A DNA stretch of 64,000 bases from Nitrospirota bacterium. GTDB lineage: Bacteria; Nitrospirota; Thermodesulfovibrionia; Thermodesulfovibrionales; Dissulfurispiraceae. Every line of letters begins with the position of its first letter. Within the stretch, counting starts at the first letter, position 1. The translations under genes and the position numbers were made by a program. The stretch lies in assembly GCA_040754455.1 (NCBI GenBank), contig JBFMCP010000002.1, positions 96,001-160,000 of the forward strand, in the 5' to 3' direction. This document shows positions 5,788 to 24,764 of this stretch, piece after piece. Under the pieces are notes generated by a model. The model did not search any database and had not been told where the DNA came from. It was given only the letters and a program-made list of their open reading frames with translations.

Positions 5788-8423
5788 TGGCTGAAATTGC
5801 AATTCATATCCGTGCCAATGACGATGCAACACGAATTTTCAAGAACGTTGCCGACAGTGTGGGTGCTTTCGGTGAAGCCTGCAAGCGTGCCGAGAGCAAG
5901 GTCTGGGATTTCGTCAAGGGACTCGGGGCTTTCGAAATCATCAAGAGTGCCGCCGGCAGGCTGCGGGAGCTCGCTGCCGGCACCCTGGGCGTCGCCTCGT
6001 CGAACGAGCTGTATATAACCACCCTTACTACGCTGCTCGGCTCTCAGGAAGCGGCCAATCAGAAATTTAAGGAGCTTAATGATTTCGCCCGTGCTACGCC
6101 TTTCCAGATTGACGGCTTGATCAAGTCGTTTATCAATATGAAATCCATGGGCCTCGACCCTACCATTGAGACTATGCGCATTCTCGGAGATACCACCGCG
6201 GCCCTCGGAGGGGGCGAGGAAAAGTTTATGGGTATCTCCCGCGCCCTGGGACAGATCCAGACGAAAGGGAAGGTTAGCGCCGAGGAGCTGATGCAGCTTG
6301 CCGAGCAGGGCGTGCCTGCCTACGAGATCCTGAAGCAAAAGCTGGGACTCACGGCGCAAGAGGTGGCCAACATCGGCAACGCGGGGCTTTCCTCTGAAAA
6401 GGCGATACAAGCTCTCCTGTCGGGTATGGGCGATCGATTCGGCGGGCAGATGAGCAGTATGCAAACGACGTGGAAAGGTTTGATAGAGGAAATAAAGAGC
6501 TTCTGGCGTGACTTTGTTTCTTTAGTGGCTGATGCAGGGGCCTTCGACAAACTGAAAGGCTATATCTCAGATCTCCGCGATGCGGTGAACGAGGCCTTTG
6601 ACAGCGGCAAAGCACAGGAGTGGGCGCGGTCAATCTCGTCGGCGGTTGAAACGGCCGTAGGGACCGTGAGAGCCGTAGGCAGTGCAATAGATACGCTTAC
6701 GAGCCAGTTCGATGAGCTCTTTATCATGCTTTCAGCTGGCACGTTGACAGCCATTGCAGTCAATTTCGATGCGATAGTAGCAGCACTCGGACGTTTAACA
6801 GCCGCGTCGTCGATAGCCGGCGCAACCATAGCGCAAGTGATGCTGCCGGCATTGGCCGCGCTCATAGGCTACAAGATCGGGGAGATCGTTGATTATGTTA
6901 CTGACCTGTCCGGAGCCGGCACGCAGCAGATTGATCAAATAATGAGCGATGTTGCTGAAGAACAGAAGTTCCTTGATGAGCGGGCATCGAAGTATAACGA
7001 TACGATCAAAGAGCTGGGGATGAAGTCATATAAGGAGCTGAACGCCGCCATTAAATCGGGTTCTGTTGTAATGGATGAGGCGAGTGGAAAGTGGAAGCGT
7101 TATGTCGAAGAAACGAAAAGCTCAGCGACGGAAAGCGAGGCAGTGAAAAAAGTTATTTCCGGTGCGTCTGAGTCCGTCGAGAGCTTTAAGGTGAAGATCG
7201 ATAACCTCAACCCCTCGGTTGATAAGCTTGCAAAAGAGGAGGCTGAGCTCTACAGGACCGCGGAAAAGCTGTTTAAGGAAATGGATAAACAAAAAGGGTT
7301 GCCGTTCGAAGAGCGCCTGAGAATGCAGCAGCAGATCAATGAGGAGCTGAGGCGCGGCCTTGAATATCTGCGCGAATCGGATGCACGGGAGAAATATATT
7401 CAGCTCGCTGAAAAGGCGAGGGGAGTTATTGAAGAGGAGATCAAGGGGTATGATCGGCTGCGCGACAGCATGGTGAAAGCCTATGACGATGCCATGCAGA
7501 AAGCCCAGGGGTATTACGAGCTGGCGGACAAGCTCAAACAGGCGGCTGATGATTCCCGGTCGAGACGGGCGGCGAGAGAGGCGAGGCCGCTAACACCGGA
7601 TGAGGAATTCGATGCGAACTACAAAAAAATTAAAGACATCTTCAGCAAGGAGAGTCTCAATTTTATTGATCCTGAACGCACGCAGGAGGCTCTGGGCGTC
7701 CTGAATGATTTTGCGGATAAGTATCAGAACTTCCACAACAGCTTCGGTTCCAGCATGGCCTTTGAAATGGGCAGGGCGAATAACATGATCAAAGAGCTGG
7801 AGTCAAAGCTTGATAACATGGCAGTGGACGCAGAGACTTCAGGCCAGGCATGGGAGCGGTTTGCCAATAAACAGATACAGGCGATCCAGTCGGTGGACCA
7901 GTGGGTTGTTTATCTGCACGAGGGAGTGAGCAACCTTAATGCCGATATCACCGCAGTGAAGGAATTCAAGCTCGATGTTTCCTCTGCTCAGGCGAAGCTT
8001 GAGGCGCTTGCTATGCAGATATCTTCGGTGTATCAGATGATGAACAGCGTTTCGCAGCCGCGCGGCTCTGGCGCTGTGGTGACTTCTACCACCTACAGCC
8101 TTGCCGATACCTACAGCCAGCTCCAGGTAAATTCCAACTCGCAGGCATGGGCCGATTACGCCAGTTCGCTGGATTGGAATACTCCTTACCACGGCGGCAC
8201 GCGGTATGTCTCCGAAACAGGGCCTCGCTGGCTGCTTCGCGGTGAAGAGGTCCGCAATCCTCGGGAGGCCAGCAGAGGCAACCAGAACACGACGCAGGTC
8301 GTGTTTTCAGAAGGGAGCATCCAGATCATCTCCCAGGGCAATGGCATATCGGAGCAGGATCTGGATAAAGCGGCCAGGCAGCTGGTGGCAAAAGTCGAAG
8401 AGTATTCCAATAGGAGGTTATAG
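5787..8423 (+). CDS. Tape measure protein
   Basis: 878 aa; tape-measure domain (FARATPF, GQIQTKGKVSAEEL.QLAEQGVP), long helical region. Confidence 0.93.
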   Translation: MAEIAIHIRANDDATRIFKNVADSVGAFGEACKRAESKVWDFVKGLGAFEIIKSAAGRLRELAAGTLGVASSNELYITTLTTLLGSQEAANQKFKELNDFARATPFQIDGLIKSFINMKSMGLDPTIETMRILGDTTAALGGGEEKFMGISRALGQIQTKGKVSAEELMQLAEQGVPAYEILKQKLGLTAQEVANIGNAGLSSEKAIQALLSGMGDRFGGQMSSMQTTWKGLIEEIKSFWRDFVSLVADAGAFDKLKGYISDLRDAVNEAFDSGKAQEWARSISSAVETAVGTVRAVGSAIDTLTSQFDELFIMLSAGTLTAIAVNFDAIVAALGRLTAASSIAGATIAQVMLPALAALIGYKIGEIVDYVTDLSGAGTQQIDQIMSDVAEEQKFLDERASKYNDTIKELGMKSYKELNAAIKSGSVVMDEASGKWKRYVEETKSSATESEAVKKVISGASESVESFKVKIDNLNPSVDKLAKEEAELYRTAEKLFKEMDKQKGLPFEERLRMQQQINEELRRGLEYLRESDAREKYIQLAEKARGVIEEEIKGYDRLRDSMVKAYDDAMQKAQGYYELADKLKQAADDSRSRRAAREARPLTPDEEFDANYKKIKDIFSKESLNFIDPERTQEALGVLNDFADKYQNFHNSFGSSMAFEMGRANNMIKELESKLDNMAVDAETSGQAWERFANKQIQAIQSVDQWVVYLHEGVSNLNADITAVKEFKLDVSSAQAKLEALAMQISSVYQMMNSVSQPRGSGAVVTSTTYSLADTYSQLQVNSNSQAWADYASSLDWNTPYHGGTRYVSETGPRWLLRGEEVRNPREASRGNQNTTQVVFSEGSIQIISQGNGISEQDLDKAARQLVAKVEEYSNRRL

Positions 8424-10293: not shown

Positions 10294-11271
10294 ATGCTTG
10301 CGCTGTCAATTGCGACAAAGGGATACTGGGCTGACAACAATACGCTCAGTATCGCTACGGGTGGCTATCGTCGACGGCTGAGCCAGGTCTCCAGTGACCG
10401 CACCGTTTCCACTGCCTGGACACGGTGCGTATGCATTGATCGGACATTCTCCGGAGACCGGCGCAAGGCTGTAGTCGGATACGGATCGCTCCATGTCGAT
10501 TTCCTGCAGAACAACAATCTGATACTGAGAAATGTGGTGCTCTCCTATGATTTCGTCAAGGCTTTTTACGATGCTGCCGTGATGCCTGTCGAATACCGTC
10601 TCGGGGTGCAGCGTGATGCATCACTCCAGCTCGATCGCTACGCTCCGCTGCATGCCGATGCGATGATGCGGACGGACTTCCTGAAAGCCGTCCGGCCCGA
10701 GAGGACATTTCCTGCGGCGTATGAAAAAGCGCGCCTGATGAGCGTCGTAATCCCCTGCGATGCCCGTGCGTCTCGTTCTGCAACAGTGATTTTACCTTTT
10801 GATGGACTCAAGCGTCCGGTTATAGACCATCTATTACTCTTTGACATAATTACAAAGCTGGACAAGGATGTGCAACTGCCGATCGGTATTACCGGCAGTT
10901 GGGGAAAGGTTGTCTTCCTGCATCCTGCCGGCGCCGTGCATTTTTATAGACGGCCGTTGAAGCAGCAGCCGCAGGGATTTCAGATGTTCCAGCCCTCGGG
11001 CAGAGACAGCAATGGAGATTTCTACAGCACTACAAAAAGCACGCTCAGGATCAGGGATGAACAGCTTGCATTCCGCAATATCAGCGACTATACCATAGAA
11101 TCTCTGCGCTATTTTATTCTGAATGCGGCCCGGGGGACCAAGAATAAGTTCACCTATTTTGATGTCTACAATGTACCGCATACGGCGAAGTTTACTGAAC
11201 GTAAATTCTCCTGGCGGCGGACCGGCTACAACAAAAACGACCTGGTGATCTATCTGGAGGTCTATTTATGA
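10294..11271 (+). CDS. Tail protein with 14-aa repeats and a C-terminal Dit-like domain
   Basis: Exact 14-aa periodicity at 10540-10875; C-terminus aligns with 8609-8971. Confidence 0.6.
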   Translation: MLALSIATKGYWADNNTLSIATGGYRRRLSQVSSDRTVSTAWTRCVCIDRTFSGDRRKAVVGYGSLHVDFLQNNNLILRNVVLSYDFVKAFYDAAVMPVEYRLGVQRDASLQLDRYAPLHADAMMRTDFLKAVRPERTFPAAYEKARLMSVVIPCDARASRSATVILPFDGLKRPVIDHLLLFDIITKLDKDVQLPIGITGSWGKVVFLHPAGAVHFYRRPLKQQPQGFQMFQPSGRDSNGDFYSTTKSTLRIRDEQLAFRNISDYTIESLRYFILNAARGTKNKFTYFDVYNVPHTAKFTERKFSWRRTGYNKNDLVIYLEVYL

Positions 11272-13760
11272 GTAGGACCCTCACCCCGGGATTTGCCGCC
11301 GAGCTCGCCAAGAAAACCGGTACAAAGCCGGTATGGTTTTTAGGTGCACAACTCGGCACCACAACGCTCTATATCGGCGACAATGAGCTTACTATTCCCT
11401 CCTGGCAAGGCGGCATCACCGTAAAACCGTGGGTCAAGGACTGGGGAGAGGTCCGTGAAGGAATCGATAACAGCCTTGGAGAATTCAAGGTTTCGGAGTA
11501 CTCCATCTCGTGCCTGAACGATACGAGTATCACGGAGAATCTTGTCTATTACCTGACCAATTTCCGTCCGGAAAAGAACACGGTCAGCCTGTATCTATGG
11601 TTCCTCGACCTTGACCCGGTTACAGACCCGCCGCTGGAGATCTCCAGGGGCTATATCAAGAACTATCCCTGTCCTGATGACTACAACGTTACCCTGCAGA
11701 TCCAGGATGAGACGCTGAAGCTCGAGCGCCACTATGTGGGTGCCAAAGTGAGCCTGGCCGATTACCCCGGCGCGGACCCCGACGACGTGGGGCGCGTGAT
11801 CCCGATCCCCTTCGGCACGGTGAAGAAGCTCAGAGCCCTCGCGCTCGATGCCGGGTACAAGACGAGTCTGCCTGCGATCCTGCAGCCGGGCGTGACGAAT
11901 TTCAACGTGAGCGACGGAGAACGTTTGAGCGCGGGCAAGGTTATCACCATTGATGAAGAGGACATCTATATCATCAATATCTCGGAAGACAACATCACCA
12001 ACTGCACCAGGGGCTACAACGGCACCCTCGAGGCCAAGCACCTGCGAGGCGCCGTCGTATGGGAAAAGAAGGACATCTTTGTCTATGTCGTTTCCGATAA
12101 GCCCCTCGACAGCATGGGCAAGGTGTATGGCAGGGTCGGCGATGCCGAGGTAGATATCACCAGCATTGTCACCAGGTACACCGGCCAGCCGGGCAGTGTG
12201 CTCACCGGTTATGAAGGGAAAGCGGTTGTTACCGTTCCCGGGTATATCACCGTGCAGCAGGCGGTGGACCTGCTCGTTAGCGACGGCATAGGCGTGAATG
12301 ATGCGATCGCCATAGTGGACGGCATTGCGGTCAATGACACCATCTCGGTCTACGACACGATAGCGGTGAGCGATACGATCGGCGTCTCGCAGGGATACCA
12401 TGGCCATGCAGTGAGTTCGCCTTCGGCAGCTTATTACGGTAATGGGGCAAGCCATAGTGGCTCTAATGCTTCGTTTTCCGGATCGGATGCAAATTTGCGC
12501 GATCAGAATACAGGAACAGGGTTGACTGCAAATTTCAATGGTTCGCAGACAATCCAAAGCTTCTCTGCCACTATGACAGTTACCTTTCCTGCTTATAGCG
12601 GGCCGACGCCGCAGTCGGTCTATCTCTGTGTCAATTATCGAGGCGGCTTTAACTCAGGCGGGTATATTAGGCTGAATGGAGTCGATATCGGTGCCGAAGG
12701 AAGTAATGTAACCAAAAAAATCAATGTCGGCACGTCAGTGCCGAGCTCAATCGCTTTGTCATGTTATTCGCCGGGAGCCCAGTATGTGCAAGGCGGTTAT
12801 TTAGTGGGCACTGAAATCTGGTATGAGGTGCAATCGAATGCCACATCCTCAGATCCCGCTGCGGGCGTGGCGAAGACCGGCTCGGCGAGCAAGAGCGGCT
12901 CGGCAAGCAAGAGCGGCTCGGCATCGAAATCAGGCACCACATCCCGCTCCGGAGCTGCGACCAAGACCGGCACTGTAGCGCTCTACGGCAACTCCGTGGC
13001 CAATACGCTGGTAGGCGACGCTATCCTGGTCGACGTGACGCGCAGCTTTGCGGACTGTGATGCGGCCATGCAGAGCATTGCGAGCGACGCCGGTGTTGCG
13101 AGCTTCCAGGGTATCGGCAGCCTGCCGGGATACTACGCATTCAACGGCGCGATCACCGAATACAAGCCCGCGCTCTATTGGCTGAATTATCTCGCCTTCC
13201 AGTGCCGGAGCCGCTTCCGTATGCACCTGGGTACCGCGCAGCGCATCTACCGCCCTGACACGATCACGCCGGTGGAGACGTTACCTACGGTCGTCTTGAG
13301 GCAAGACGGCAAGAGGGCGCTCTACAGAGACCAGACGCCCTACAGCGATATTATTAACAAAATGAATCTCCTCTATGACAGGGATTACTCTCAGCAGACA
13401 CGGGACGAGGGCTCGTATAGGGGCAACTCCAAGGACAGTTCAGTGAACGGAACACTGAGGCAGCTGCTGGATGCCTCGATCGCCGACTACGGCCTTTGCG
13501 AGCGCCCTGAACTTTTCAGGTTCGACTTCGTGAGCGATCCGACAATGGCGGACCATTTGCGGGACTTTTACCTTTCGTATTATCACTACCGGCATTGGAC
13601 AGATGTCTTCGAGGAGTACTGGATATATGCCGATCTCGAGTTCGCCGATGGGGTGACGCTCGGATTTTTGGGCAACCGGGCTGCCGAGATCCTTGAGACG
13701 AGGTACCGCCCCGGTAATAGGGACAACCTGGATATAATCGGCTTCGTGGCCGTGGAATAA
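11268..13760 (+). CDS. Tail tip / baseplate hub protein with an inserted putative binding domain
   Basis: 830 aa; IPIPFG and CTRGYNGT motifs, C-terminal SIADYG; hexapeptide repeats flank an insert. Confidence 0.7.
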   Translation: MSRTLTPGFAAELAKKTGTKPVWFLGAQLGTTTLYIGDNELTIPSWQGGITVKPWVKDWGEVREGIDNSLGEFKVSEYSISCLNDTSITENLVYYLTNFRPEKNTVSLYLWFLDLDPVTDPPLEISRGYIKNYPCPDDYNVTLQIQDETLKLERHYVGAKVSLADYPGADPDDVGRVIPIPFGTVKKLRALALDAGYKTSLPAILQPGVTNFNVSDGERLSAGKVITIDEEDIYIINISEDNITNCTRGYNGTLEAKHLRGAVVWEKKDIFVYVVSDKPLDSMGKVYGRVGDAEVDITSIVTRYTGQPGSVLTGYEGKAVVTVPGYITVQQAVDLLVSDGIGVNDAIAIVDGIAVNDTISVYDTIAVSDTIGVSQGYHGHAVSSPSAAYYGNGASHSGSNASFSGSDANLRDQNTGTGLTANFNGSQTIQSFSATMTVTFPAYSGPTPQSVYLCVNYRGGFNSGGYIRLNGVDIGAEGSNVTKKINVGTSVPSSIALSCYSPGAQYVQGGYLVGTEIWYEVQSNATSSDPAAGVAKTGSASKSGSASKSGSASKSGTTSRSGAATKTGTVALYGNSVANTLVGDAILVDVTRSFADCDAAMQSIASDAGVASFQGIGSLPGYYAFNGAITEYKPALYWLNYLAFQCRSRFRMHLGTAQRIYRPDTITPVETLPTVVLRQDGKRALYRDQTPYSDIINKMNLLYDRDYSQQTRDEGSYRGNSKDSSVNGTLRQLLDASIADYGLCERPELFRFDFVSDPTMADHLRDFYLSYYHYRHWTDVFEEYWIYADLEFADGVTLGFLGNRAAEILETRYRPGNRDNLDIIGFVAVE

Positions 13761-14410: not shown

Positions 14411-15496
14411 ATGGGACAGAGCATTATATGGAAAGATGATCCGGCATATTCGACGAATGCCGCTAACTTTCACAAGAGCATGGACATCAGGCCGGGCCTG
14501 TTCAACAATTACCTGCAGGTTAATGCTACAAAGACCGGCATCATCGTCAAGGCCGATACCATCATCCCCCTGAAAAGCGGGTCCACGTGGAAGGCGTACC
14601 TGTTCACCTCTGACAGCGAGGTGACGACGCTCGACACCGGCGCGCTTACCCTGGGGACGCATTACTACGTCTATCTCTGCGATAACGGTACGGACAACGG
14701 GCTGCTGCTCCTCTCTGCGAACTCCACCGCGCCGCAGGGCTACACCGCATCGGACTCCAGGAAGATCGGCGGCTTCCACTACGGCAGAGTGCGCAATAGC
14801 ATCACCGTGGCCGACGTCACCAGCGGCGCCGTGGTCCCCAACTCGGTGTGGGACCTCTACAACCGTCCCAAGTGCTCTCCGGAGGGCATGGTGAAGATCC
14901 ACGAGAACCTCTGGTGCGATATCTACCTCGCCTCGGTCAACGAGGCGATCACCTTTGCTGCGGGCAATGGCTCCCCCACTAAGGCAGGCTCCTGCAAGAG
15001 CGCCTACAATGCAGCGCCTCTGACGGGCACAGAGGGCCTCAGCGGCTACAACTTCCTCGAGCTGGCCAGAAGGTCCGGCAAGAGACTTTTGACCCTTGCA
15101 GAATGGCTGCAGGCAGCGCACGGGAGTCCACAAGGAAATAACGGGGATAATAACAACGCCTGGTCAGCTACCACCAATTCAGCAAGGACAAATACGGGCT
15201 CTGTGGCCAATGCAATCAGCCTTTTAAATGTGGTAGACTGTGTGGGAAATGTCTTGGAATGGCTTGATGAATTTTCGAATCGACAGGATACCACGAGCTG
15301 GAACTGGTACGACGTTATGACAGGCATGAGTGTGGGTCAGCTTTATCTGGCGAACAACACGGGATTGATACAGTATTTAGCCGGTGGCCATTGGAGCCCT
15401 GGCGTCTACGCTGGCTCGCGGTGCGTTAATGCCAATAGCTCTCCGTGGAGTGTCTCTCCGGATATCGGCTCCCGGCTGGCCTGTGACGCTCTGTAA
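14411..15496 (+). CDS. DGR target: major tropism determinant (Mtd)-like receptor-binding protein, C-type lectin fold
   Basis: Motifs shared with Bordetella BPP-1 Mtd (AP.GYT....RKIGGFHY, SVWD...RP, W.DIYL, GKRL, GG.W...GSR); VR at the 3' end. Confidence 0.92.
   Translation: MGQSIIWKDDPAYSTNAANFHKSMDIRPGLFNNYLQVNATKTGIIVKADTIIPLKSGSTWKAYLFTSDSEVTTLDTGALTLGTHYYVYLCDNGTDNGLLLLSANSTAPQGYTASDSRKIGGFHYGRVRNSITVADVTSGAVVPNSVWDLYNRPKCSPEGMVKIHENLWCDIYLASVNEAITFAAGNGSPTKAGSCKSAYNAAPLTGTEGLSGYNFLELARRSGKRLLTLAEWLQAAHGSPQGNNGDNNNAWSATTNSARTNTGSVANAISLLNVVDCVGNVLEWLDEFSNRQDTTSWNWYDVMTGMSVGQLYLANNTGLIQYLAGGHWSPGVYAGSRCVNANSSPWSVSPDIGSRLACDAL
15380..15486 (+). repeat. DGR variable repeat (VR)
   Basis: 107-bp ungapped match to 15931-16037 with 13 mismatches, all opposite TR adenines. 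Confidence 0.97.
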
Positions 15497-15537
15497 TCTG
15501 AAATCTGATAATCTGTTTTGTTTTTTGTCGTTGTATC

Positions 15538-15557
15538 AGGCGGGCGAAAGCCCGCCT
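15538..15557 (+). promoter_or_regulatory. DGR target-recognition hairpin/cruciform
   Basis: AGGCGGGC-GAAA-GCCCGCCT, a perfect 8-bp stem downstream of the VR. Confidence 0.8.
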
Positions 15558-15590: not shown

Positions 15591-15923
15591 ATGAACGATC
15601 TCGTGATTTACCAGAAGGTGTACGATTTCACGCTGTACCTTTTCCCGATTGTAGAGAAGTTTCCGAAGCATGAGAAGTTTGTCCTCTGTACGCACGTCAA
15701 ATCATGCGTGCTCGATATTGCCCGGCTGATCATCAGGGCCAATAAGAGCCGGACGAAAAAGGCGATCCTCTACGACATCGATGTGAGGATCGAGGAGCTG
15801 AAGTTTCTGCTCCGGCTTGCTCATGACAGGAAATACCTCTCCAACAAAAGCTACGAGCACAGCAGCAAACTGCTGCTCGAAATAGGAAGGCTGTTAGGAG
15901 GATGGATCAAAAGTGTGGGTTAA
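15591..15923 (+). CDS. avd: DGR accessory variability determinant (four-helix bundle)
   Basis: LVIYQKVYDF, FPKHEKFVL, LKFLLRLA, EIGRLLGGWIK; lies between target and TR. Confidence 0.93.
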   Translation: MNDLVIYQKVYDFTLYLFPIVEKFPKHEKFVLCTHVKSCVLDIARLIIRANKSRTKKAILYDIDVRIEELKFLLRLAHDRKYLSNKSYEHSSKLLLEIGRLLGGWIKSVG

Positions 15924-15930
15924 GGGCGAT

Positions 15931-16037
15931 ACCGGTGGCAATTGGAGCAATGGCGTAAACGCTGGCTCGCGGTGCGTTAATGCCAATAACTATCCGTGGA
16001 ATGTCAATACGAATATCGGCTCCCGGCTGGCCTGTGA
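15931..16037 (+). repeat. DGR template repeat (TR)
   Basis: A-rich copy of the VR (25 A; 9 AAY codons in the VR frame), starts 8 nt after the avd stop. Confidence 0.97.
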
Positions 16038-16230
16038 GTGTATAGGGCTTACAGAGATGATGTCTCTCTACGGAGCATCACCAGTGACATATACAGTCAG
16101 GCCCTTGATCCCTGCCGCAAGGCAAAAATTGGAGAGGCTCTGTGCAGTGAGTACGGACAGCAGTCCTTAAAATTGTGCAGGCCGCATAATTTCGGTCGGT
16201 TAATAGCTCCGCTTCAGCCGGAGAACTGTT

Positions 16231-16340
16231 AAACCCGAAATCTCAGAATCGTAAAAACGGTCGGTTAGTTGGCAACTCCTCCGGGAGAGCTGCCAAGCCC
16301 ATCAAAAACCGTTTTACGGTTTTCAGATTTCGGGTTTTTT
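16231..16340 (+). other. Long imperfect inverted repeat in the TR-RT spacer, ending in a T-run
   Basis: AAACCCGAAATCT...CGTAAAAACGGT pairs with ACCGTTTTACG...AGATTTCGGGTTT; inner TTGGCA/TGCCAA stem. Confidence 0.75.
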
Positions 16341-16359
16341 GGTTTCAGGAGGCTGACCG

Positions 16360-16545
16360 ATGGGCGGGAAGAAAGACGACAAGGAATGGAAGCGAGTATT
16401 GGTGAAGTGCCTGGAGGATCTGGGCAAGGAGGGGATTGTCCCTCCGGATGTGAAGAATCTGACCGGCAGGCTTGTCCTCGATCTTAATATGAGCCAGGGC
16501 GGGGTAACGGATCTGGATGTCTCGGTGAAGAGGAAATTTAAATAA
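16360..16545 (+). CDS. 61-aa hypothetical protein between TR and RT
   Basis: SD AGGAGG; the stop lies 1 nt before the RT ATG. Confidence 0.65.
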   Translation: MGGKKDDKEWKRVLVKCLEDLGKEGIVPPDVKNLTGRLVLDLNMSQGGVTDLDVSVKRKFK

Positions 16546-16546
16546 G

Positions 16547-17581
16547 ATGCCTAAGACCTATAACGGCCTGTTTGAGAAGATCTGCGATTTCGAGAACATC
16601 TATGGCGCATACCTCAAGGCGAGAAAATGCAGGCGGTACCGGGAGGAAATACTCAGGTTCAGCCGCAATGTGGAAGAGGAACTGTTGACGCTCCAGGATG
16701 AGCTGGTGCTGGGCACCTACAGGACCGGCCAGTACAAGCGGTTCTTTGTGTTCGAGCCAAAGAAACGAGAGATATTCGCGCTTCCCTTCAGGGACAGAGT
16801 GGTGCACCATGCAATCTGTACGATTATCGAGCCGCTCTTTGAGCGGAAGTTTATCTTCGACTCCTACGGGTGCAGGACCGGCAAAGGGCAGCATGCCGGG
16901 TCGTCCCGGCTGGTCTCCTTCCTGAGACGGGCGCAGAGAGTATGGGATGAGGTCTATTGCCTGAAGGCCGACGTGTCGAAATTCTTCCCCTCGGTGGACC
17001 ATGAGGCATTGAAGGGCATCATACGGCGGACCATACGCTGCAAAAGGACCCTGCAGCTTATCGATTGCATCATCGACAGCGCGCCTGAAGAGAAGGGGAT
17101 ACCGATCGGGAATCTTACCAGCCAGCTCTTTGCGAATATCTACCTGAATGAGCTTGATTACTTCGTAAAGAACGAGCTGCAGGCGAAGTTCTATCTGCGC
17201 TATATGGATGATTTTGTGATCCTCCATAACGATAAGAAAGTGCTGCATCAGTGGATGGCGCAGGTCGGCGAATTCCTGAGAGAAAGGCTTAAGCTTGAGC
17301 TCCATGCAAAGACCTCTGTCTTCCCCATCTCCAGGGGCGTCGACTTCCTCGGCTATCGCACCTGGCCGACGCACAAGCTCCTCAGGAAGCGCAATATCAT
17401 CGGCATGAAACGGAAGCTCAAAAAGCTTTCTGCATTATACAGGGACGGCAGGATTACCCTTCAGGTCGTGAGGCCGGTCATAGCCTCATGGCTCGGCCAC
17501 GCGAAGCACGCGAGCAGCTATAACGTCGTGAGGAGGATGCTCGGGAACGCTGTGTTTAGTAGGAGTTCATTATCGGGATGA
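16547..17581 (+). CDS. brt: DGR reverse transcriptase
   Basis: 344 aa; FRDRVVH, KADVSKFF, GIPIGNLTSQLFAN, RYMDD, VDFLGY; no maturase/endonuclease extension. Confidence 0.95.
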   Translation: MPKTYNGLFEKICDFENIYGAYLKARKCRRYREEILRFSRNVEEELLTLQDELVLGTYRTGQYKRFFVFEPKKREIFALPFRDRVVHHAICTIIEPLFERKFIFDSYGCRTGKGQHAGSSRLVSFLRRAQRVWDEVYCLKADVSKFFPSVDHEALKGIIRRTIRCKRTLQLIDCIIDSAPEEKGIPIGNLTSQLFANIYLNELDYFVKNELQAKFYLRYMDDFVILHNDKKVLHQWMAQVGEFLRERLKLELHAKTSVFPISRGVDFLGYRTWPTHKLLRKRNIIGMKRKLKKLSALYRDGRITLQVVRPVIASWLGHAKHASSYNVVRRMLGNAVFSRSSLSG

Positions 17582-17707
17582 TGTTATAATCATTATTGAT
17601 AAATTTCAAAACTATAAGCCTAAGCAGTGCAGTAAATGAAAAAGCCGCCGATAATAAGAAAAGGGACAATCAATAACTCCGCCTGTCGGAGAGCTATTAG
17701 AGACCCT

Positions 17708-18142
17708 ATGAGAAGAAAGAGAAAAATACTTATCGTTGATGATGAAGAGTTTGTACGTGCCGCTGTTCGCAGAATCCTTGAATTTAATAATTATTCGATT
17801 ATCGAGGCGCTCTCCGGGCCTGAGGCTTTAAAAAAATTGTCTGAAAAACCCGACTTGATCATTGCTGATTACCATTTAGGCGGCATGTCTGGGTTATGCC
17901 TCTTGATTGAGATCCGAAAGGCCAGTGATATCCCTATTATCATGTTGACCGCGGACTCCTCACAGAAAATAGCGGTGCAGTGGTTTCGTGAGGGAGGAAA
18001 TGATTTTATCCATAAACCTTTTGACAGCGATTTTCTTTTAGTCGTCGTTGAGCGCACACTGCGTTATGCTGCTGCCATGAGGGCAATGATGTCACAGCCC
18101 ACGAAAACCCGTAAGCCTCGCTCGAAGAGATCCTCGAAATAG
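17708..18142 (+). CDS. Stand-alone response regulator receiver protein (cargo gene; alternative start 17636)
   Basis: ILIVDDE, PDLIIADY, IIMLTA, FIHKPF; AT-rich; TGTTATAAT at 17582-17590. Confidence 0.85.
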   Translation: MRRKRKILIVDDEEFVRAAVRRILEFNNYSIIEALSGPEALKKLSEKPDLIIADYHLGGMSGLCLLIEIRKASDIPIIMLTADSSQKIAVQWFREGGNDFIHKPFDSDFLLVVVERTLRYAAAMRAMMSQPTKTRKPRSKRSSK

Positions 18143-18592
18143 GGGCATGATCGCTTTAAGTACGTCCGCTTTTGACGATGACGGGGCTATGGATGAGGTG
18201 CAAGTTTCTTTTATTGGTTCAGTTGTTTGCAAATAGGGATCGACCTGTGAATAAACATTCAGGGCAATGATGATATGAGCAAGCAAGGGGATGCCTACCA
18301 ACTCACCCACCTCGATCAGCCTCTTTGTTATCTCTATATCTTTCTTGCTTGGCGAGGGGTCTCCGCTTGGATGGTTATGAACTAAGATGACAGCATAGGC
18401 GCTATTTCTGATTGCCTTCCGGAAGACCTCTCGGGGATGGATCAATGAATTGGTGAGCGTCCCCCTCGATATGAGTTCTTTCTCAATAAGATCCTTTTTT
18501 GCATTCAGATGCAGCAGATACACATTCTCCCGATCCTCCAGTTCGAGAAATTGCATTGTTTGATAGACATCGGCAGCGTTCCTGATCTTCAT
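18092..18592 (-). CDS. radC: RadC-like JAB domain protein (short form)
   Basis: E...IHPREVFR...HNHPSGDPSPS..D JAMM motif. Confidence 0.88.
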   Translation of the reverse strand: MKIRNAADVYQTMQFLELEDRENVYLLHLNAKKDLIEKELISRGTLTNSLIHPREVFRKAIRNSAYAVILVHNHPSGDPSPSKKDIEITKRLIEVGELVGIPLLAHIIIALNVYSQVDPYLQTTEPIKETCTSSIAPSSSKADVLKAIMPLFRGSLRARLTGFRGL

Positions 18593-18628
18593 GACATACT
18601 CCTTATTTTTTTTGTAAAGATTCTACCG

Positions 18629-18644
18629 AGCAATGATTGTGCCA
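18629..18644 (-). promoter_or_regulatory. sigma54 (-24/-12) promoter upstream of radC
   Basis: TGGCAC-AATCA-TTGCT, consensus match. Confidence 0.7.
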
Positions 18645-18806
18645 AAACAAAATAAGAGTTATGAAACTGTTTTTCAATGATTTGGGGGAAGCTTCGGCGT
18701 GATGGTTATACAGAAAATGGATAACACTATTCATTTTTTGTATAACTACAGGGAAGCGGAGGTCGAGAGATATCCCCCCTCTCCTTTTGCACAATCTGGG
18801 TTTGCA

Positions 18807-18828
18807 AAAAGTACCCTAAAAGTACCCT
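18807..18828. repeat. Tandem 11-bp direct repeat, candidate integrase arm-type sites
   Basis: AAAAGTACCCT x2, about 110 bp from the tRNA-Glu 3' end. Confidence 0.55.
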
Positions 18829-18937
18829 TTGAAGAGCAGAAAAGATACCGAAAATAGCGGGTAGTTACCGATTGAAGCTGTTATGTCTGGACGGTGAAAA
18901 AGGTTATAAATCAGAGGATCTTGCTGATAAAAAAGAG

Positions 18938-19013
18938 TGGTGGTCCCAACGGGAGTCGAACCCGTGTTTTAGCCTTGAGAGGGCCACGTCCTAGGCCACT
19001 AGACGATGGGACC
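18938..19013 (-). tRNA. tRNA-Glu(CTC), probable prophage att site
   Basis: GGTCCCA...CT-CTC-AA...GTTCGACTC...TGGGACCACCA cloverleaf. Confidence 0.96.
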
Positions 19014-19108
19014 AATTAAGATAGTGTTTAGCTATCAGCATTCAGCAATCAACAACAAACTTAAAACAATCCGGATAAAGCGGATTGCTAAAAGCTCACA
19101 GCCGAAAA

Positions 19109-19182
19109 TGGCTGGGGAGAGAGGATTCGAACCCCTATAAGCAGATCCAGAGTCTGCCGTCCTGCCATTGGACGACTCCCCA
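19109..19182 (-). tRNA. tRNA-Gln(CTG)
   Basis: TGGGGAG...GCAGA-CT-CTG-GA-TCTGC...GTTCGAATC...CTCCCCAGCCA. Confidence 0.96.
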
Positions 19183-19305
19183 AAAGTCTCGGTAAAGTGT
19201 AACTTATTACAATATATAAAATTCAGCAATTAAGTCAATACACACCCGGCACTTCCGCCCCGTTCACGGGGTCCGTACGAGCGCTCCTCTGTGCTATAAT
19301 CACCT

Positions 19306-21441
19306 ATGCCTACACCGCGCGGGGATACAAAGAACATCATCCTTCTTGCCGTTCTGTCCTTCGGCATCTCTCTTCTCGTCTTTTTATCCGATGTGCTCGG
19401 CACTCTTGAACTCAAGGCATACGATCTCTACTCACAGCTCCTGAACCCTTCCCGTACTTCCGAAGACATCGTCGTCGTGCAGGTCGACCAGCGCAGCATC
19501 GATGCCCTGGCCTGGGGGGGCGTTAATTGGCCCTGGCCCCGGCAGATCTATGCACAGGTCATTGAGTATCTTTCTGAAGCGGAAGCGGTCTTCATTGATA
19601 TTCCCTTTACCGAGCCTTCCCCCTATGGTGCTGAGGACGACAGGATGCTGGCGGAAGCATGCAAAAAATCGCTCAATGTCTTTCTCCCGGTGGTCCTTTT
19701 GAAGCAGCAGAGGGCGCTGTCTGCAGCAGATGAGGAGTTCCTAAGAAATATTGCATTCCGGGAAAAGGTTGCCACAGGCGCAGCTTTCAGCGCCGCCATT
19801 ACTCCTATCGATGTATTGAAGGATGCTGTCGTCGGTGCGGGAAATATCACGATTACCGCTGATAGGGATGGCGTGTACCGCAGGATTCCCCTCGTCGCCA
19901 GAATAAAGCAGCAGACTGTCCCTCACTTTGCGCTCGGCAGTTTCCTCCGCAAGGGGACACTGGCGGTGCGGCAGAATGCACTGTATGCACGGAATACGAG
20001 GATACCGCTTACGGAAGGGAAGTTCATGCTGCAGTACCCTGGAAAAGGTAGTGCCTTCACCACGCTTTCGGCGATTGATATATTGAAATCGGCGATTTCG
20101 GGCACCGCCTCGGGCGAATCCGTCGTTACAAGAGACTTCTTCAAAGGGAAGACGGTGCTGATCGGCGTGACGGCAGCAGGTTTGTACGATGCCAAACCGA
20201 CCCCGGTTGTCCCGGCAGCAAGCGATGTGTTTATCCATGCCGCGCTTCTCGATAATATTGCTGGTGGGAACTTCATGCGGCAGGCCGACAGCGTGTTTGT
20301 AGTCGCCTTCATACTGCTCATTGTCGCCGCCGTCTGTCTTCTGGCACTGCAGCGTTACTCCTGTGGGGTAACCTTGGCGTTTTTTCCGGCGTGTCTGCTC
20401 ATCGTCCTCGGCGTCACTGTCCTCTCTTTTATGAATGCATGGTATCTGAATATCGTCGCTCCGGTGGCGGCGCTGCTGCTGAGCTTTTCCATTACTGCCG
20501 CCTACCGCTCTGCTGCGGAAGGGAGAGAGCGGCTTTTCATGAGGAAGACGCTTTCCCCGTATATGGATAAGCAGCTGGTGGAGTATGTGCTGCAGCATCC
20601 CTCACTCCTCAACCCTGGAGGCAGGCGGAAGAGGATCACTGTTCTTTTTACCGATGTCACCGGATTTGCCTCGTACACCGAAAACGTCTCTGCCGAACGG
20701 GCCGCAATGGTGCTCCATACACTCCTGAACGCCTTTACCGAGGTGATCATACGGAACAGCGGCGTTATCGGTAAATACATCAGCGACAGCATCATGGCCT
20801 TTTGGGGTGCCCCGCTCCGGGCAGAGAGCGATGAAAGCAACGCCTGCCGCGCTGCCCTCGAATGTATGGATGCGCTGAAGGAGGTAAATGTAAAGCTTAA
20901 ACAGCAGGGACTTCCCGAGATCGCTGTCAGGATCGGTGTCCACACAGGAGATGCGATCGTCGGAAACATCGGGAGAGACGGCCTCTTCGAGTATACGGCG
21001 ATCGGCGATGCGGTGAACCTCGCCTCACGGCTCGAATCGATCAACAAGGTGTTCAAGACAGGGATCATCGTCAGCGAGGAGACGCTGCAGAGGACGGGAG
21101 ATGACTTCTTCGTCAGGGAGCTTGGTATGATCGAAGTGAAGGGCAAGACCCTTCCGGTCAAGCTTTTCGAGCTGGTCGGGGAATCGGGCGCGGTGCGTTT
21201 CGAAAAGAGGGAGCTGGTCAGGGAGTATCTCTATGGATTGACACTCTACAAGGAGCAGAAGTGGTATGCGGCGATCCAGACGTTTCAGAAACTACTCGAT
21301 GCCACTCCACAGGACGGGCCTTCCGAGTTTTATAAACGGCGATGCGAGTATCTGATCGAGCATCCCAAGCTCGCCGGCGACTGGGACATCGTCAATATCG
21401 TCGAGAAGGAACGCAAGAATTTCTTCACCGGCCCTGCCTAG
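19306..21441 (+). CDS. CHASE2-domain class III adenylate/guanylate cyclase
   Basis: WPWPR CHASE2 motif, 3 TM helices, LFTDVTGF, RIGVHTG, GDAVNLASRLE. Confidence 0.92.
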   Translation: MPTPRGDTKNIILLAVLSFGISLLVFLSDVLGTLELKAYDLYSQLLNPSRTSEDIVVVQVDQRSIDALAWGGVNWPWPRQIYAQVIEYLSEAEAVFIDIPFTEPSPYGAEDDRMLAEACKKSLNVFLPVVLLKQQRALSAADEEFLRNIAFREKVATGAAFSAAITPIDVLKDAVVGAGNITITADRDGVYRRIPLVARIKQQTVPHFALGSFLRKGTLAVRQNALYARNTRIPLTEGKFMLQYPGKGSAFTTLSAIDILKSAISGTASGESVVTRDFFKGKTVLIGVTAAGLYDAKPTPVVPAASDVFIHAALLDNIAGGNFMRQADSVFVVAFILLIVAAVCLLALQRYSCGVTLAFFPACLLIVLGVTVLSFMNAWYLNIVAPVAALLLSFSITAAYRSAAEGRERLFMRKTLSPYMDKQLVEYVLQHPSLLNPGGRRKRITVLFTDVTGFASYTENVSAERAAMVLHTLLNAFTEVIIRNSGVIGKYISDSIMAFWGAPLRAESDESNACRAALECMDALKEVNVKLKQQGLPEIAVRIGVHTGDAIVGNIGRDGLFEYTAIGDAVNLASRLESINKVFKTGIIVSEETLQRTGDDFFVRELGMIEVKGKTLPVKLFELVGESGAVRFEKRELVREYLYGLTLYKEQKWYAAIQTFQKLLDATPQDGPSEFYKRRCEYLIEHPKLAGDWDIVNIVEKERKNFFTGPA

Positions 21442-22211
21442 AACAGCAGATTGTAATCGTTCAGAATTTCTTTGGCCAAAGCAATATAGCCCTGGGCACC
21501 CGTCGAGTTCGGCGAATAGAGCACGGCGGGCTTGCCGTGGCTGGGAGATTCCGCGAGGATGATATTCCGCGGGATGACGGTATCGTAGACCTTTGATTTG
21601 AACACCCTCCGCACCTCATCGGCCACCTGCCGTGAGAGCGCGATATGACGATTGTACATGGTGAGCAATATTCCTTCGAGATCGAGCGTTTCATTGAAGC
21701 TACCGCGCACTCTCCAGAGGAGCTTTATGAGGAGGCTGAGCCCCTCCACTGCAAAGTACTCGCACTGCACCGGGACAATCACCGACTCTGCTGCCACGAG
21801 GGCATTCAGGGTCAGGAGGCCAAAGGAGGGGGGGCAGTCGATGAAGATAAAGCGGTATTTCGGTTTCAGCGGTTTTAGGAGGTCACACAAGGTCGTCTCG
21901 CGGCGGGGTTTTTCGAGGAGCTCTATCTCGGCGGCAAAGAGGTCCATTGATGTGGGCAGCACGTGGAGATTGGGAATGAGCGTCTGCATGATGGCATCAT
22001 CTACCGTGGCCTTGCCGCAGTAGATATCGTAGAGGTCCGCTTTTATCTGCTCTTTCTTGATACCGAATCCGCTGGTCAGATTGCCCTGGGGATCAGAGTC
22101 GATGATGAGGATATTTTCGTTTGCGAGGGCGAGGGATGCGGAGAGATTGAGGGCGGTGGTGGTCTTGCCGACCCCGCCTTTCTGGTTCGTTATTGCAATG
22201 ATCCTGCTCAA
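21438..22211 (-). CDS. ParA/Soj family ATPase
   Basis: NQKGGVGKTT, DSDPQGN, IDCPP, PVQCEY, LAESPSHG. Confidence 0.93.
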   Translation of the reverse strand: MSRIIAITNQKGGVGKTTTALNLSASLALANENILIIDSDPQGNLTSGFGIKKEQIKADLYDIYCGKATVDDAIMQTLIPNLHVLPTSMDLFAAEIELLEKPRRETTLCDLLKPLKPKYRFIFIDCPPSFGLLTLNALVAAESVIVPVQCEYFAVEGLSLLIKLLWRVRGSFNETLDLEGILLTMYNRHIALSRQVADEVRRVFKSKVYDTVIPRNIILAESPSHGKPAVLYSPNSTGAQGYIALAKEILNDYNLLF

Positions 22212-22254
22212 ATCGACTCTTTAAGCACAAAAAGTATTCTGCAGGGAACAACGA

Positions 22255-23811
22255 TCAGTCCCACCTATGCACTCCCGATGCGGGGCTCATCTCCTGGATG
22301 TTGTACTTCTTCATCTTATAACCGATCTGCCGTGGGGTAAGGCCGAGCAGACGGGCTGCCCTTGCCTGAACCCAGCCGGACCGTTTCAGAGCTTCGATGA
22401 TTTTTGTTTTCTCGATGTCCTCTATGGTGGAGGGCAGCGCATCTTTGAGCTGTGTCGCATACCGAGCCTTGATCAGCTGATCCTTGATATTGAGCGGCAG
22501 GTCGGATTGGGTAATCGTATTTCCCCCGGCCATGACGACCAGCCGTTCGATGGTGTTTTCGAGCTCCCGCACATTGCCGGGCCAGTCATAATTGAGAAAA
22601 GTATTCATAACGTCGGGGGTGATGGTAACGGATTTATGATTGTCATGGTTGAACCTCTTGAGGAAATGTTCGACGAGAGGAGGAATGTCCTCCTTCCTCT
22701 CCCGCAGCGCAGGCAGAAAGAGAGGGACGACATTGAGGCGATAATAGAGATCTTCCCTGAATCTGCCGCCAGCAACGAGCTCTTCGAGATTCCTGCTCGT
22801 TGCGGCAATGAGCCGAACATCGACCTTGATGGTCTTTTCGCCGCCGACCCGCTCGAATTCTTTCTCTTGCAGCACCCGCAGTATCTTGGGCTGGAGGGCA
22901 ATCGGCAGGTCGCCGATCTCATCGAGAAAGATAGTGCCGCCGTTCGCCAGCTCGAAGCGGCCCTTTCGCATGGTCATCGCTCCGGTAAAGGCGCCCTTCT
23001 CGTGACCGAAGAGCTCCGACTCGAGCAGTCCTTCGGGAATGGAGGCGCAATTGAATTTGACAAAGGGTCCCTTTGCCCTTGGGCTCATATAGTGAATCGC
23101 TTTTGCGACCAGTTCCTTGCCGGTTCCGCTCTCGCCGCGAAGCAGCACATTGGCCTTTGACGGCGCCACCCTATGGATCGATTCGAAGACCTCCTGCATC
23201 CTCTCGGAGTAGCCGATGATGTTTTCGACTTTGTACTTTCCCCTCAACTGCTGCTTGAGCTGCTCCCTCTCCGCGAGAAAGGCCTCGCGCTCCTTTTCGA
23301 GCTCTCGGTGCAGCTTTACCGACTGTGCGATCAGGGATGCCATGATCTTCAGTAGCCGCAGGTCCTCCTCGAAAGACACCCTCTTGGAGCCGAAAAGCCG
23401 GTCGACGCTCAGGACGCCCACTATCTCGTTTTTGAACTTTATGGGGACGCAGAGAAAGGCGATGTTCTCTTTTTTGATCATCTGCCGGGCGCCGGTCTTG
23501 TTGAGGAAGAGCGGCTCTTCACCGATATTCGGAATGACGATGGGAGAGCCGTGTTTCGCCACCTGGCCGATAATGCCCTCTCCCAGCTTGTATCTGCCCC
23601 TTTTGATCTCTTCTTCGGACATGCCGTGTGCGGCGATGATGGAGACTTCATTGTTGTTCCTGAGCGCGACGGTCCCCCGCTTCATGTCGAGGTATTCGGA
23701 GAGCACTCGCATGACGCCCCGGAGGTTTGCCCTGAGGTTCAGCGATGAGCCGAGGAGCTTGCTGATCTCGTAGAGCGCGGTGATTTCGAAGGTCTTATCG
23801 TTATTACGCAT
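22255..23811 (-). CDS. nifA: NifA-like sigma54 activator (GAF-AAA+-HTH)
   Basis: GAF domain (GEGIIG, FLNKTG), [15 protein letters not shown]-terminal [17 protein letters not shown]. Confidence 0.7.
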
Positions 23812-23964
23812 AGGTATACAGTTTAATAAAATGCTACAAAAATGTAAAGTTTTAATACTTTATTGTATGACCTCGGATCAACCGTCGATTGCGGGGAGGG
23901 ACGGGAAATCGAGTATAATAAGCCCATCAAACGGTCTGTTCCGTCTGACAAGGAGGAGTTCGGA

Positions 23965-24495
23965 ATGAAACGACAGAAAGCCCTTCCCTCAATGATTGTG
24001 GTGTTCGCCGTAGTGGGGACCCTCTGCATTGCCCCTGCTGCCGAAGGCACTGGCTGGAAGCCCTATGCCGAAACAGCCTTCTTTACATTCCATTACGATG
24101 CCGATGATATCAGCTATCCCTCGAAGCGTCTTGATCTCAACCGCGTGAAAGTGGTCAAAGGCTACATTCTCGGCGTCTGGACAAAGCGGGTTCCCAGAGG
24201 GGAGGAAGGAAGGGAGCGGCAGATCGAGGAATACAAGAAATCAGGGCTCTCCACGAAAGGGTATGAGCGCTATGCGCATACTGTTGCCATGGAGGAGATA
24301 AACTGCAGGGAAAAGACCTTCCGCGTCATCTCTGAGACCGATTTCGATAAAGAGGGCAACAAGCTGGGCGCTTTCGTCCAGGAGCCGTCCCGTGTGCGCT
24401 GGAAGCCCATCCTGCCGGAATCGGACCACGATGCGCTCTTCACGGTGCTTTGTAAGGAGCTGCCGTCGAAGATGGTTGAGGTGCAGGAGAAGTAG
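23965..24495 (+). CDS. Secreted protein, surface-adhesin-E-like
   Basis: SD AAGGAGG, signal peptide, VWTK...EINC...W.PILPES...LC. Confidence 0.6.
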   Translation: MKRQKALPSMIVVFAVVGTLCIAPAAEGTGWKPYAETAFFTFHYDADDISYPSKRLDLNRVKVVKGYILGVWTKRVPRGEEGRERQIEEYKKSGLSTKGYERYAHTVAMEEINCREKTFRVISETDFDKEGNKLGAFVQEPSRVRWKPILPESDHDALFTVLCKELPSKMVEVQEK

Positions 24496-24503
24496 AGAGT
24501 AGC

Positions 24504-24764
24504 ATGGATAACGGTTATATCACTCTTATCGGCTTGCTCGCCGCCACTCTTACGACAGCATCCTTCATCCCCCAGGTCGTGAAGACCTGGAAGCTCAAGG
24601 AGACAAAAGATCTCTCCTTCTGGATGCTGCTGCTCTTCAGTGTCGGTATTTTCCTGTGGCTGCTCTATGGCGTGTTCATTAAGGACTTGCCGGTCATCCT
24701 TGCCAACCTCGTCACCTTTGTCCTCGTCATGATTATTCTATTTTTCAAGCTCAAATATAGATAG
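24504..24764 (+). CDS. SemiSWEET / PQ-loop transporter
   Basis: LTTASFIPQVVK, TKDLS, WLLYG, PVILAN. Confidence 0.9.
   Translation: MDNGYITLIGLLAATLTTASFIPQVVKTWKLKETKDLSFWMLLLFSVGIFLWLLYGVFIKDLPVILANLVTFVLVMIILFFKLKYR

Follow-up and report, generated by a model that had tools for sequence, protein, structure and literature searches.

To our knowledge, no natural machinery other than diversity-generating retroelements (DGRs) carries out targeted protein hypermutation in bacteria and phages. DGRs are being rebuilt as tools for evolution, and that of BPP-1 has been reconstituted in E. coli (PMC12875486; 10.1101/2025.08.18.670894). We know of a worked-out mechanism for the core formed by the protein Avd, the reverse transcriptase (RT) and the template RNA, of none for any other accessory gene, and of no account of how cells limit the RT. 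A DGR on contig JBFMCP010000002.1 of a Nitrospirota bacterium (positions 96,001 to 160,000; this whole 64-kb stretch, 64,000 nt, is called the window) raises the question of what a DGR may carry between its template repeat (TR) and its RT gene. In the window the two are separated by 509 nt (16038-16546), as an initial annotation had estimated at about 510 nt. The first 146 nt of this spacer (16038-16183) probably function, by analogy with characterized elements, as an ordinary DGR spacer RNA (Sp). The ~360 nt that follow (16184-16546) are an addition to the usual DGR spacer and consist of a linker, a hairpin with a U run, and a gene for a small protein, here called ORF61:

16184..16230, + strand: linker of 47 nt with a small CTCCG...CGGAG hairpin; its fold is no better than that of shuffled sequences (z = -0.27).
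16231..16340, + strand: oversized hairpin of 107 nt with a T6 end, terminator-like, found by repeat search and folding.
16347..16352, + strand: Shine-Dalgarno (SD) sequence AGGAGG of ORF61, 7 nt before its ATG and conserved in the related locus L001 (see below).
16360..16545, + strand: ORF61, 61 aa, unnamed family; supported by its ratio of nonsynonymous to synonymous substitution rates (dN/dS), its homologues and its position before the RT gene.

We propose, with a probability of roughly 45%, that this addition is a clade-specific DGR accessory module, in which the hairpin ends or stabilises the RNA comprising avd, TR and Sp and limits read-through, and in which ORF61 acts with the RT or with its RNA.

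For comparison, 18 loci were fetched from genome contigs with the window RT as query. One of them, L001, lies on a contig of a Nitrospirae metagenome-assembled genome (MAG), encodes an RT 85-86% identical to that of the window and shares the arrangement of target, avd, TR, Sp, hairpin, SD, 61-aa ORF and RT. The distance from TR to RT is 509 nt in the window and 517 nt in L001, compared with 40-257 nt in the 10 other loci with an upstream TR; in the rest, the TR lies downstream of the RT (three loci) or was not detected (four). A more distant locus, L003 from Desulfosporosinus acididurans (RT 47-48% identical), has the cassette order target-avd-TR-RT-14 RNA-RT, RT-14 being an Rfam motif, and a gap of only 31 nt between this RNA and the RT gene. 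The RT gene is followed by a response regulator gene in the window and by a gene for a Dam-like methyltransferase in L001, so the cassette has been kept while its flanks differ. The L001 gene (5041-5850) encodes a D12-class N6-adenine DNA methyltransferase and abuts the RT stop codon.

Is the 61-codon frame a gene? The ORF61 copies of the window and L001 differ at 31 of their 186 nt, 21 of them third codon positions, which corresponds to a dN/dS of 0.068 at a dS of 0.97; the other two frames give 1.2 and 4.5. The same comparison yields 0.026 for avd, 0.094 for the RT and 0.10 for the target. ORF61 is a real gene under purifying selection. The initial annotation had described its start and end correctly, since the AGGAGG sequence, the 61-aa frame, the stop 1 nt before the RT start and the weak SD of the RT are all in the sequence. 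The TAA stop (16543-16545) ends 1 nt before the RT ATG at 16547, and the only SD-like sequence of the RT, GAGG (16530-16533), is weak and lies 13 nt before that ATG. From this spacing, translational coupling of the RT to ORF61 had been suggested, an arrangement that is not conserved: in L001, ORF61 and the RT gene are separated by 10 nt and the RT has a strong SD of its own (GGGGGAGG), so that it is the ORF61 protein, and not coupling, that is conserved. The most radical form of the coupling idea would make ORF61 a mere upstream frame that delivers ribosomes to the RT start, its protein being irrelevant. The close stop and the weak RT SD of the window are what such a role would need, yet purifying selection acts at the amino-acid level (dN/dS 0.068), nine residues (W10, K11, T35, G36, N43, G47, G48, D51 and K59) are invariant across 24 aligned sequences down to 44% identity, and L001 has both the 10-nt gap and the strong RT SD; we regard this explanation as highly improbable.

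A profile built from seven sequences retrieved 22 clusters of ORF61 homologues (at 90% identity), with 43-87% identity to the window protein and, for the most part, lengths of 59-62 aa. A single member can be recorded on as many as 64 contigs, and the source names, where given, read "hypothetical protein" from MAGs of Nitrospirae/Nitrospirota, Nitrospinae and Pseudomonadota. Early searches (2 matches) had given the impression of a tiny family and of RT relatives of 66-79% identity without ORF61, a view overturned by the 22-cluster profile search. ORF61 has no match below E = 0.01 in Pfam, NCBIfam, PHROGs or PADLOC (in Pfam, 0 families even at E ≤ 1), and none of 24 family members matches bAvd or HRDC, in agreement with the earlier impression that the protein is neither Avd nor HRDC. 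The best E-values against PDB sequence profiles are 0.26 and 0.38. In the ESM Atlas, the best values of 0.83 (unnamed viral clusters) and 0.77 (a cluster named after DUF2292) fall within the range of shuffled proteins. Weak sub-threshold matches include winged-helix and helix-turn-helix (HTH) entries (MarR, eWH_GTF3C1, DpnI_C, HTH_Crp_2, WH_GDS1 and a MYST helix-turn-helix stretch), a similarity that we treat as a lead only.

Structure prediction with AlphaFold2 gave a mean pLDDT of 54.5 from three sequences and 67.4 from seven. The better model predicts a helix (residues 4-23) followed by a beta-hairpin (34-43/48-58), and both ends of the protein are rich in lysine and arginine. A Foldseek search, which the initial annotation had proposed as a check, returned 0 matches at E ≤ 0.001 in PDB and BFVD; ORF61 matches neither a known family nor a known fold. 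Prediction of a complex between the RT and ORF61 scored 0.00 and 0.00, which speaks neither for nor against binding.

If ORF61 serves the DGR, it should be found with RTs of this kind. Adjacency was examined as DNA in the window and in L001, and in both ORF61 lies directly upstream of the RT. Beyond these two, co-location was assessed by longest contigs of equal size, comparing members of the ORF61 family with the 120 best RT homologues. Among these 120, 9 of the 20 RT clusters that are at least 62% identical to the window RT match an ORF61-family longest contig in size, against 0 of the 99 clusters below 62%. Two further size matches appear at the level of single members (2688 nt and 40823 nt), and three MAG records give consecutive accessions to the RT and the ORF61 homologue. 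Seen from the other side, with the same RTs and longest contigs, a same-size partner was found for 12 of 34 ORF61-family entries. ORF61 accompanies RTs over a range of 100% to 65% identity; among the 18 loci on genome contigs it is present in L001, the other 17 having RTs at most 50% identical. Across 12 RT/ORF61 pairs, the pairwise identities of the two proteins are correlated (Mantel r = 0.80), a value reached in 0 of 5000 permutations. The co-occurrence with DGR RTs that a DGR module should display, and that the initial annotation had named as a check, is seen in one RT subclade, and on these sequence data ORF61 is a candidate helper travelling with one RT branch.

Such a distribution might also be that of a passenger, a phage or mobile gene inherited with the cassette and without a role in diversification, in which case the hairpin would be the terminator of the upstream unit. 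Wu et al. (PMC5758913) caution that a gene found in few DGRs may be a phage gene that related phages conserve, and ORF61 is missing from 17 of the 18 RT relatives on genome contigs (all at most 50% identical in RT) and has no functional annotation. In deposited phages and plasmids we found neither ORF61 homologues nor similar spacer DNA, and the phage RTs among them are all less than 50% identical to the window RT. One homologue, moreover, stands beside a host-type membrane gene: P0172 is a 234-aa protein on a 1547-nt contig in which a VTT/DedA membrane domain (Pfam, 8e-18) is read in frame into an ORF61 homologue, which makes it a genuine fusion or the product of a read-through ORF call. We nevertheless consider a passenger improbable. 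ORF61 lies inside the cassette, on the same strand, without a promoter of its own and abutting the RT; it has been kept with RTs that are 100% to 65% identical while the flanks differ; and its dN/dS is as low as that of the RT.

What, then, is the hairpin? The initial annotation had noted an inverted repeat of about 110 nt ending in a T6 run, and this description holds. The arms (16231-16256 and 16312-16337) are 26 nt each, 88% complementary and 55 nt apart; together with the inner pairs they fold at -51.1 kcal/mol, compared with a mean of -26.9 kcal/mol for shuffled sequences (z = -7.1; 0 of 200 as stable). The lower stem comprises ~26 bp with one mismatch. At its base, CCCG pairs with CGGG, which is followed by T6 (16335-16340) in the window, and the corresponding CGGGC in L001 by T5. 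The run exists on the + strand only, the minus strand having only TTT. This is the shape of an intrinsic terminator, a GC-rich stem followed by a U run on the transcribed strand. A simple terminator scan did not list the hairpin, because its long interrupted stem exceeds the stem and loop limits of the scan; terminator-like sites in 17001-37000 number 20, against 20.6 in shuffled sequence, and are no guide to termination in this host. No promoter-like sites were found between the hairpin and ORF61. The arm sequence has no copy elsewhere in the 64-kb window at up to 3 mismatches (0 expected by chance), and copies of the hairpin are absent from the other 17 loci, so that it is not a repeat element. 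Two apparent matches were set aside: Rfam microRNA (miRNA) hits to the hairpin, which reflect hairpin shape only, and an inverted match between 15495-15519 and the 3' arm of the hairpin (76%), which ranks among obvious chance pairs. The apical part of the hairpin (16279-16283) has CUCCUCC, complementary to the ORF61 SD AGGAGG (16347-16352) and kept in L001, so that the two may form an alternative pairing.

The 509-nt spacer as a whole folds more stably than expected (z = -6.6; 0 of 100 shuffles as stable), and the identity of its non-coding parts between the window and L001 can be set beside that of the genes:

Oversized hairpin: 96.4% identical.
Sp: 94.0% identical.
Linker: 90% identical.
avd: 89.8% identical.
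TR: 86.8% identical.
ORF61: 83.3% identical.
RT: 80.5% identical.
Target outside the variable repeat (VR): 76.8% identical.

Synonymous sites of the flanking genes differ at 42-56% between the two elements. This contrast points to purifying selection on the non-coding spacer; a recombination tract covering precisely that part would be a less economical reading. Within the hairpin, the changes in L001 are a compensatory pair (16233 A>G with 16335 U>C), a change at an internal mismatch (16324) and an indel in the apical loop. No pair is broken, the apical stem is kept, and the internal loops and bulges are conserved. The hairpin is in this sense conserved in L001, the sole related element seen as DNA, which bears on the conservation in related DGRs that the initial annotation had asked for; the result is a single independent comparison between two closely related elements.

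An inverted repeat of this kind invites a further interpretation, raised in the initial annotation, namely that the segment is an invertible DNA switch gating RT expression. Its 26-nt arms, 88% complementary and 55 nt apart, would allow this. No recombinase or invertase gene, however, lies in or beside the cassette, the window and L001 agree in orientation, the + strand has no promoter-like site within the segment, and the substitutions preserve a stem of the RNA type. The 55-nt interior forms a sub-hairpin of its own, so that inversion would leave it almost unaltered. We find this switch scarcely credible.

A more serious competitor takes the conservation at face value and sees in the hairpin a sequence-specific RNA element, either a site of processing (for instance by a double-strand-specific RNase) that would divide the DGR RNA from the ORF61-RT message, or a site bound by ORF61 or RT-Avd, which would extend the DGR ribonucleoprotein (RNP). 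The hairpin is 96.4% identical in spite of the 42-56% synonymous divergence around it, with internal loops and bulges kept, and a lower stem of ~26 bp with one mismatch would suit processing or binding. In the BPP-1 structural study (10.1101/2023.10.23.563531), the RNA around the TR is described as wrapping the RT and Avd and as being recognised base by base. Hairpin and ORF61 also appear jointly as an insertion relative to cassettes of the L003 type. A hint of wider conservation comes from P0167 and P0170, miscalled long forms of ORF61 whose N-terminal extension (DFGLLFEKGGL) is similar to what the 33 nt before ORF61 in L001 would encode in frame (DFGLFGSGGL); 12 of 2000 shuffles score as well. 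Indirectly, the similarity would indicate that a lineage with a 65% identical RT has retained the 3' hairpin base together with the U-rich stretch and the SD. Set against a sequence-specific element are the modest and indirect nature of this very similarity, the homologue P0172, which leaves no room for an upstream hairpin, and the U run directly after the GC-rich stem base, a classic terminator signature kept in both elements. We judge this explanation unlikely overall, yet too well founded in the conservation to be passed over.

Whether the hairpin follows a complete spacer RNA depends on what precedes it. The following elements were recognised there:

16038..16183, + strand: Sp RNA, 146 nt, resembling Rfam RT-14, by full-length alignment to RF02921 (model 1-144).
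15917..15927, + strand: upstream duplex strand (GGGUUAAGGGC), the RNAduplex core, which spans the avd stop codon and ends 4 nt before the TR.
16058..16080, + strand: stem-loop with a UACG (UNCG) tetraloop at 16069-16072, from the fold; likely the Avd-binding element.
16101..16128, + strand: Sp duplex strand (16101-16111), GCAA-capped stem-loop (16113-16124) and A run (16125-16128), from folding and RNAduplex.
16136..16183, + strand: long interrupted stem, from the fold, aligning with the 3' hairpin of RT-14; likely the RT-binding element.

The RF02921 model, aligned over positions 1-144 in all three loci, scores 22.8 bits in the window, 30.8 in L001 and 60.6 in L003, so that of these three only L003 passes the gathering score of 48.1. 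The alignment begins at the first base past the TR in both the window and L001, and in L003 (TR 3700-3812, RNA 3812-3954) the RNA begins on the last base of the TR. Segment 16038-16183 shares with RT-14 the three-hairpin layout, the conserved stretches and, as in L003, the position directly after the TR. It is unlike certified RT-14 members in its sub-gathering score and may be a divergent relative or an analogue. The predicted duplex joins 15917-15927 with 16101-16111 (11 bp). L003 has a 12-bp duplex at the equivalent position, with duplex, stem-loop and A run in equal order, and in L001 both substitutions of the Sp strand leave the pairing intact (G-C to G-U and U-G to U-A). The energy of the duplex over the whole segments is modestly better than that of shuffles, 10 of 200 being as good.

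The BPP-1 Sp measures 140 nt. Its 5' end bears a UNCG-capped stem that binds Avd, and it further comprises a priming adenosine, a long stem bound by the RT, and a stop (cPRT Stop) consisting of a duplex with the 3' end of avd, a short tetraloop stem and unpaired adenosines (10.1101/2023.10.23.563531). The window Sp has four predicted shapes in the BPP-1 order, its stem at 16136-16183 being analogous to Sp95-139. It lacks sequence similarity to the BPP-1 Sp, and Rfam RT-10, the BPP-1 motif, is unmatched. Given this BPP-1-like series, the two small tetraloop hairpins (CTC-TACG-GAG at 16066-16075 and TGCC-GCAA-GGCA at 16113-16124) are DGR RNA parts of a known kind. The initial annotation had placed them correctly and counted them to a new module; they belong instead to the canonical Sp of ~146 nt. 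Its proposal of an accessory module between TR and RT survives in reduced form, with a real gene and a conserved hairpin and with the Sp hairpins excluded. A by-product concerns the RT motifs of Rfam. RT-1 to RT-19 adjoin RT genes, RT-10 is the TR-RT spacer of BPP-1, and their discoverers guessed that other RT motifs serve other DGRs, according to their report (PMC5737381). RT-14 is hereby assigned to the DGR spacer position (L003 3812-3954), a role previously only suspected beyond RT-10.

The proposed mechanism can now be stated. Sp would be transcribed together with avd and TR, be bound by Avd and the RT, and supply the priming and stop elements for complementary DNA (cDNA) synthesis. The 107-nt hairpin would most likely form the 3' end of this avd-TR-Sp RNA, through intrinsic termination, 3' protection or both. 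Read-through transcripts alone would then reach ORF61 and the RT gene, so that the RT would stay scarce compared with template RNA and Avd. ORF61 would be made from the shared message just before the RT and would most likely act with the RT or its RNA. The T6 or T5 run behind a GC-rich stem base, placed after a complete Sp and with no promoter-like site between the hairpin and ORF61, fits a terminator or 3' stabiliser.

Several points weigh against this proposal. Termination at the hairpin is proposed from its shape, and we infer, rather than observe, both the binding partner of ORF61 and its effect on retrohoming. The absence of a promoter after the hairpin means that a strong terminator would silence the RT. 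The hairpin is also far larger than usual terminators, with loops and bulges conserved beyond what termination needs, which is what makes a sequence-specific role a serious rival. Only two close relatives were compared as DNA, and the lone compensatory pair is one event. P0003, a homologue with a 12-codon N-terminal extension, apparently cannot encode a run of at least 5 T within 36 nt of the conserved Met, and directly upstream of the P0172 homologue there is no room for TR, Sp or hairpin. The tight stop-start spacing of the window is not seen in L001. ORF61 has no recognisable fold, its model (pLDDT 67) finding nothing in PDB or BFVD at the Foldseek threshold given above. On the side of co-occurrence, 11 of the 20 close RT clusters and 22 of the 34 ORF61 entries have no same-size partner, through limits of the listing or real absence. 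The Spearman rank correlation between RT and ORF61 identities is only 0.06, against a Mantel r of 0.80, so that the signal of co-inheritance comes from close pairs.

ORF61 and its hairpin form a compact, testable candidate for a regulatory or structural add-on and could show how the levels of template RNA and enzyme are uncoupled. One may go further and see in ORF61 a fifth class of DGR accessory protein, specific to an RT subclade of Nitrospirota, Nitrospinota and Pseudomonadota MAGs, that binds the hairpin and either extends the RNP or sets the amount of RT per template RNA by termination and antitermination; hypermutation would then have a built-in dosage control, for which we know of no description in any DGR. 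This extended version we think rather doubtful.

The surrounding locus is a complete BPP-1-type DGR within the window, at the end of a prophage tail module, in the order Mtd-like target with VR, avd, TR, 509-nt spacer and RT:

3814-4851: tail tube gene, in the prophage tail module upstream of the DGR.
5787-8423: tape measure gene, in the same module.
14411..15496, + strand: DGR target gene, 361 aa; Pfam mtd_2nd (2.5e-26) and FGE-sulfatase (5.3e-09).
15381..15486, + strand: VR, a 106-nt direct repeat of the TR, 89% identical.
15538..15557, + strand: GC-rich hairpin with a GGCGGGC/GCCCGCC stem and GAAA loop, from folding; also in L001 at ~2985-3004.
15591..15923, + strand: avd, 110 aa; Pfam bAvd (6.4e-34).
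15932..16037, + strand: TR, a 106-nt direct repeat of the VR.
16547..17581, + strand: RT, 344 aa; Pfam RVT_1 (5.7e-21).

All the components that define a DGR are present: an A-biased TR/VR pair, an adjoining RT of the DGR type, Avd and a target with a C-type-lectin fold. Read from the alignment, 12 of 12 differences between TR and VR stand opposite an A of the TR, and an A-biased pair was likewise found in 14 of the 18 relatives fetched with the window RT. The target protein combines the second domain of Mtd with a C-terminal FGE-sulfatase/C-type-lectin-like domain that bears the VR. The RT contains IGNLTSQ, which we take to be the DGR hallmark motif I/LGxxxSQ. On the 3' side of the RT lie the response-regulator gene (17636-18142), a RadC-like gene and two tRNA genes, which place the DGR at one end of the prophage.

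Downstream of VRs, GC stems of 7-10 bp with 4-nt GRNA loops are needed for target recognition in BPP-1, according to PMC3240598. The hairpin at 15538-15557 fits this pattern, yet it lies 51 nt past the VR, compared with the 4-34 bp quoted there. The 34 nt directly 3' of the VR (15487-15520) are identical in L001, the VR-avd intergenic region as a whole being 84.8% identical; a promoter-like site within this post-VR stretch (GTGACG-18-GATAAT, 15483-15512) could drive avd-TR-Sp. Upstream of the DGR, an ORF of 830 aa (11268-13760) resembles a tail fibre, with a short Ser/Gly/Lys-rich tandem stretch and no Pfam match. Antisense to the RT, an ORF of 278 aa (16538-17374, - strand) is most likely a shadow ORF. 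Among the relatives, L011 (2752-3894) has one TR (3813-3894) matching two VR-like copies, one per strand orientation of the mismatch bias, which suggests a DGR with two targets.

How does the module compare with known systems? PMC5758913 describes the DGR accessory classes Avd, HRDC, MSL and CH1 and four "potential accessory genes", PAG1-4, each in 3-4 DGRs. Like CH1 and PAG1-4, ORF61 is a small gene without annotated function that lies between DGR components and is confined to a clade of the RT tree. With 61 aa it is set apart from MSL (112-283 aa) and from the acidic CH1 (160-169 aa), both compared by size and charge only, and it co-exists with avd, whereas CH1 is reported only where avd is missing (PMC5758913). 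These distinctions from MSL and CH1 follow the published descriptions. The available supplement text of the same paper does not contain the motif QGGITD and has LTGRL once, in an unrelated target protein. A literature search, covering the accessible portions of PMC5758913, PMC6642488 and 10.1101/2020.04.01.020958 among others, found no account of the ORF61 family, of avd-TR-RT cassettes with a gene placed between TR and RT, or of an Sp followed by a terminator-like hairpin.

As for the hairpin, a functional parallel may be the DGR of Trichodesmium erythraeum, in which the TR RNA is a discrete, abundant transcript of 265 nt, separate from the RT message (PMC4143802). A terminating hairpin would give the window DGR a separate TR RNA as well. 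The Trichodesmium TR is set apart from the RT and served by a promoter of its own, whereas in the window the putative separation by the hairpin would occur inside the row avd-TR-...-RT. In its GC-rich stem base, its 5-6 U and its position between a presumably abundant RNA and a gene of presumably low expression, the hairpin is like attenuator-type intrinsic terminators; unlike usual intrinsic terminators, it measures 107 nt at -51 kcal/mol, is several times larger and is conserved in sequence beyond structural need. BPP-1 and the window share the order of target with VR, avd, TR, spacer and RT at the end of a tail module. In BPP-1 the RT gene comes after Sp, whereas the window has ~360 nt more, occupied by the large hairpin with its U run and by ORF61.

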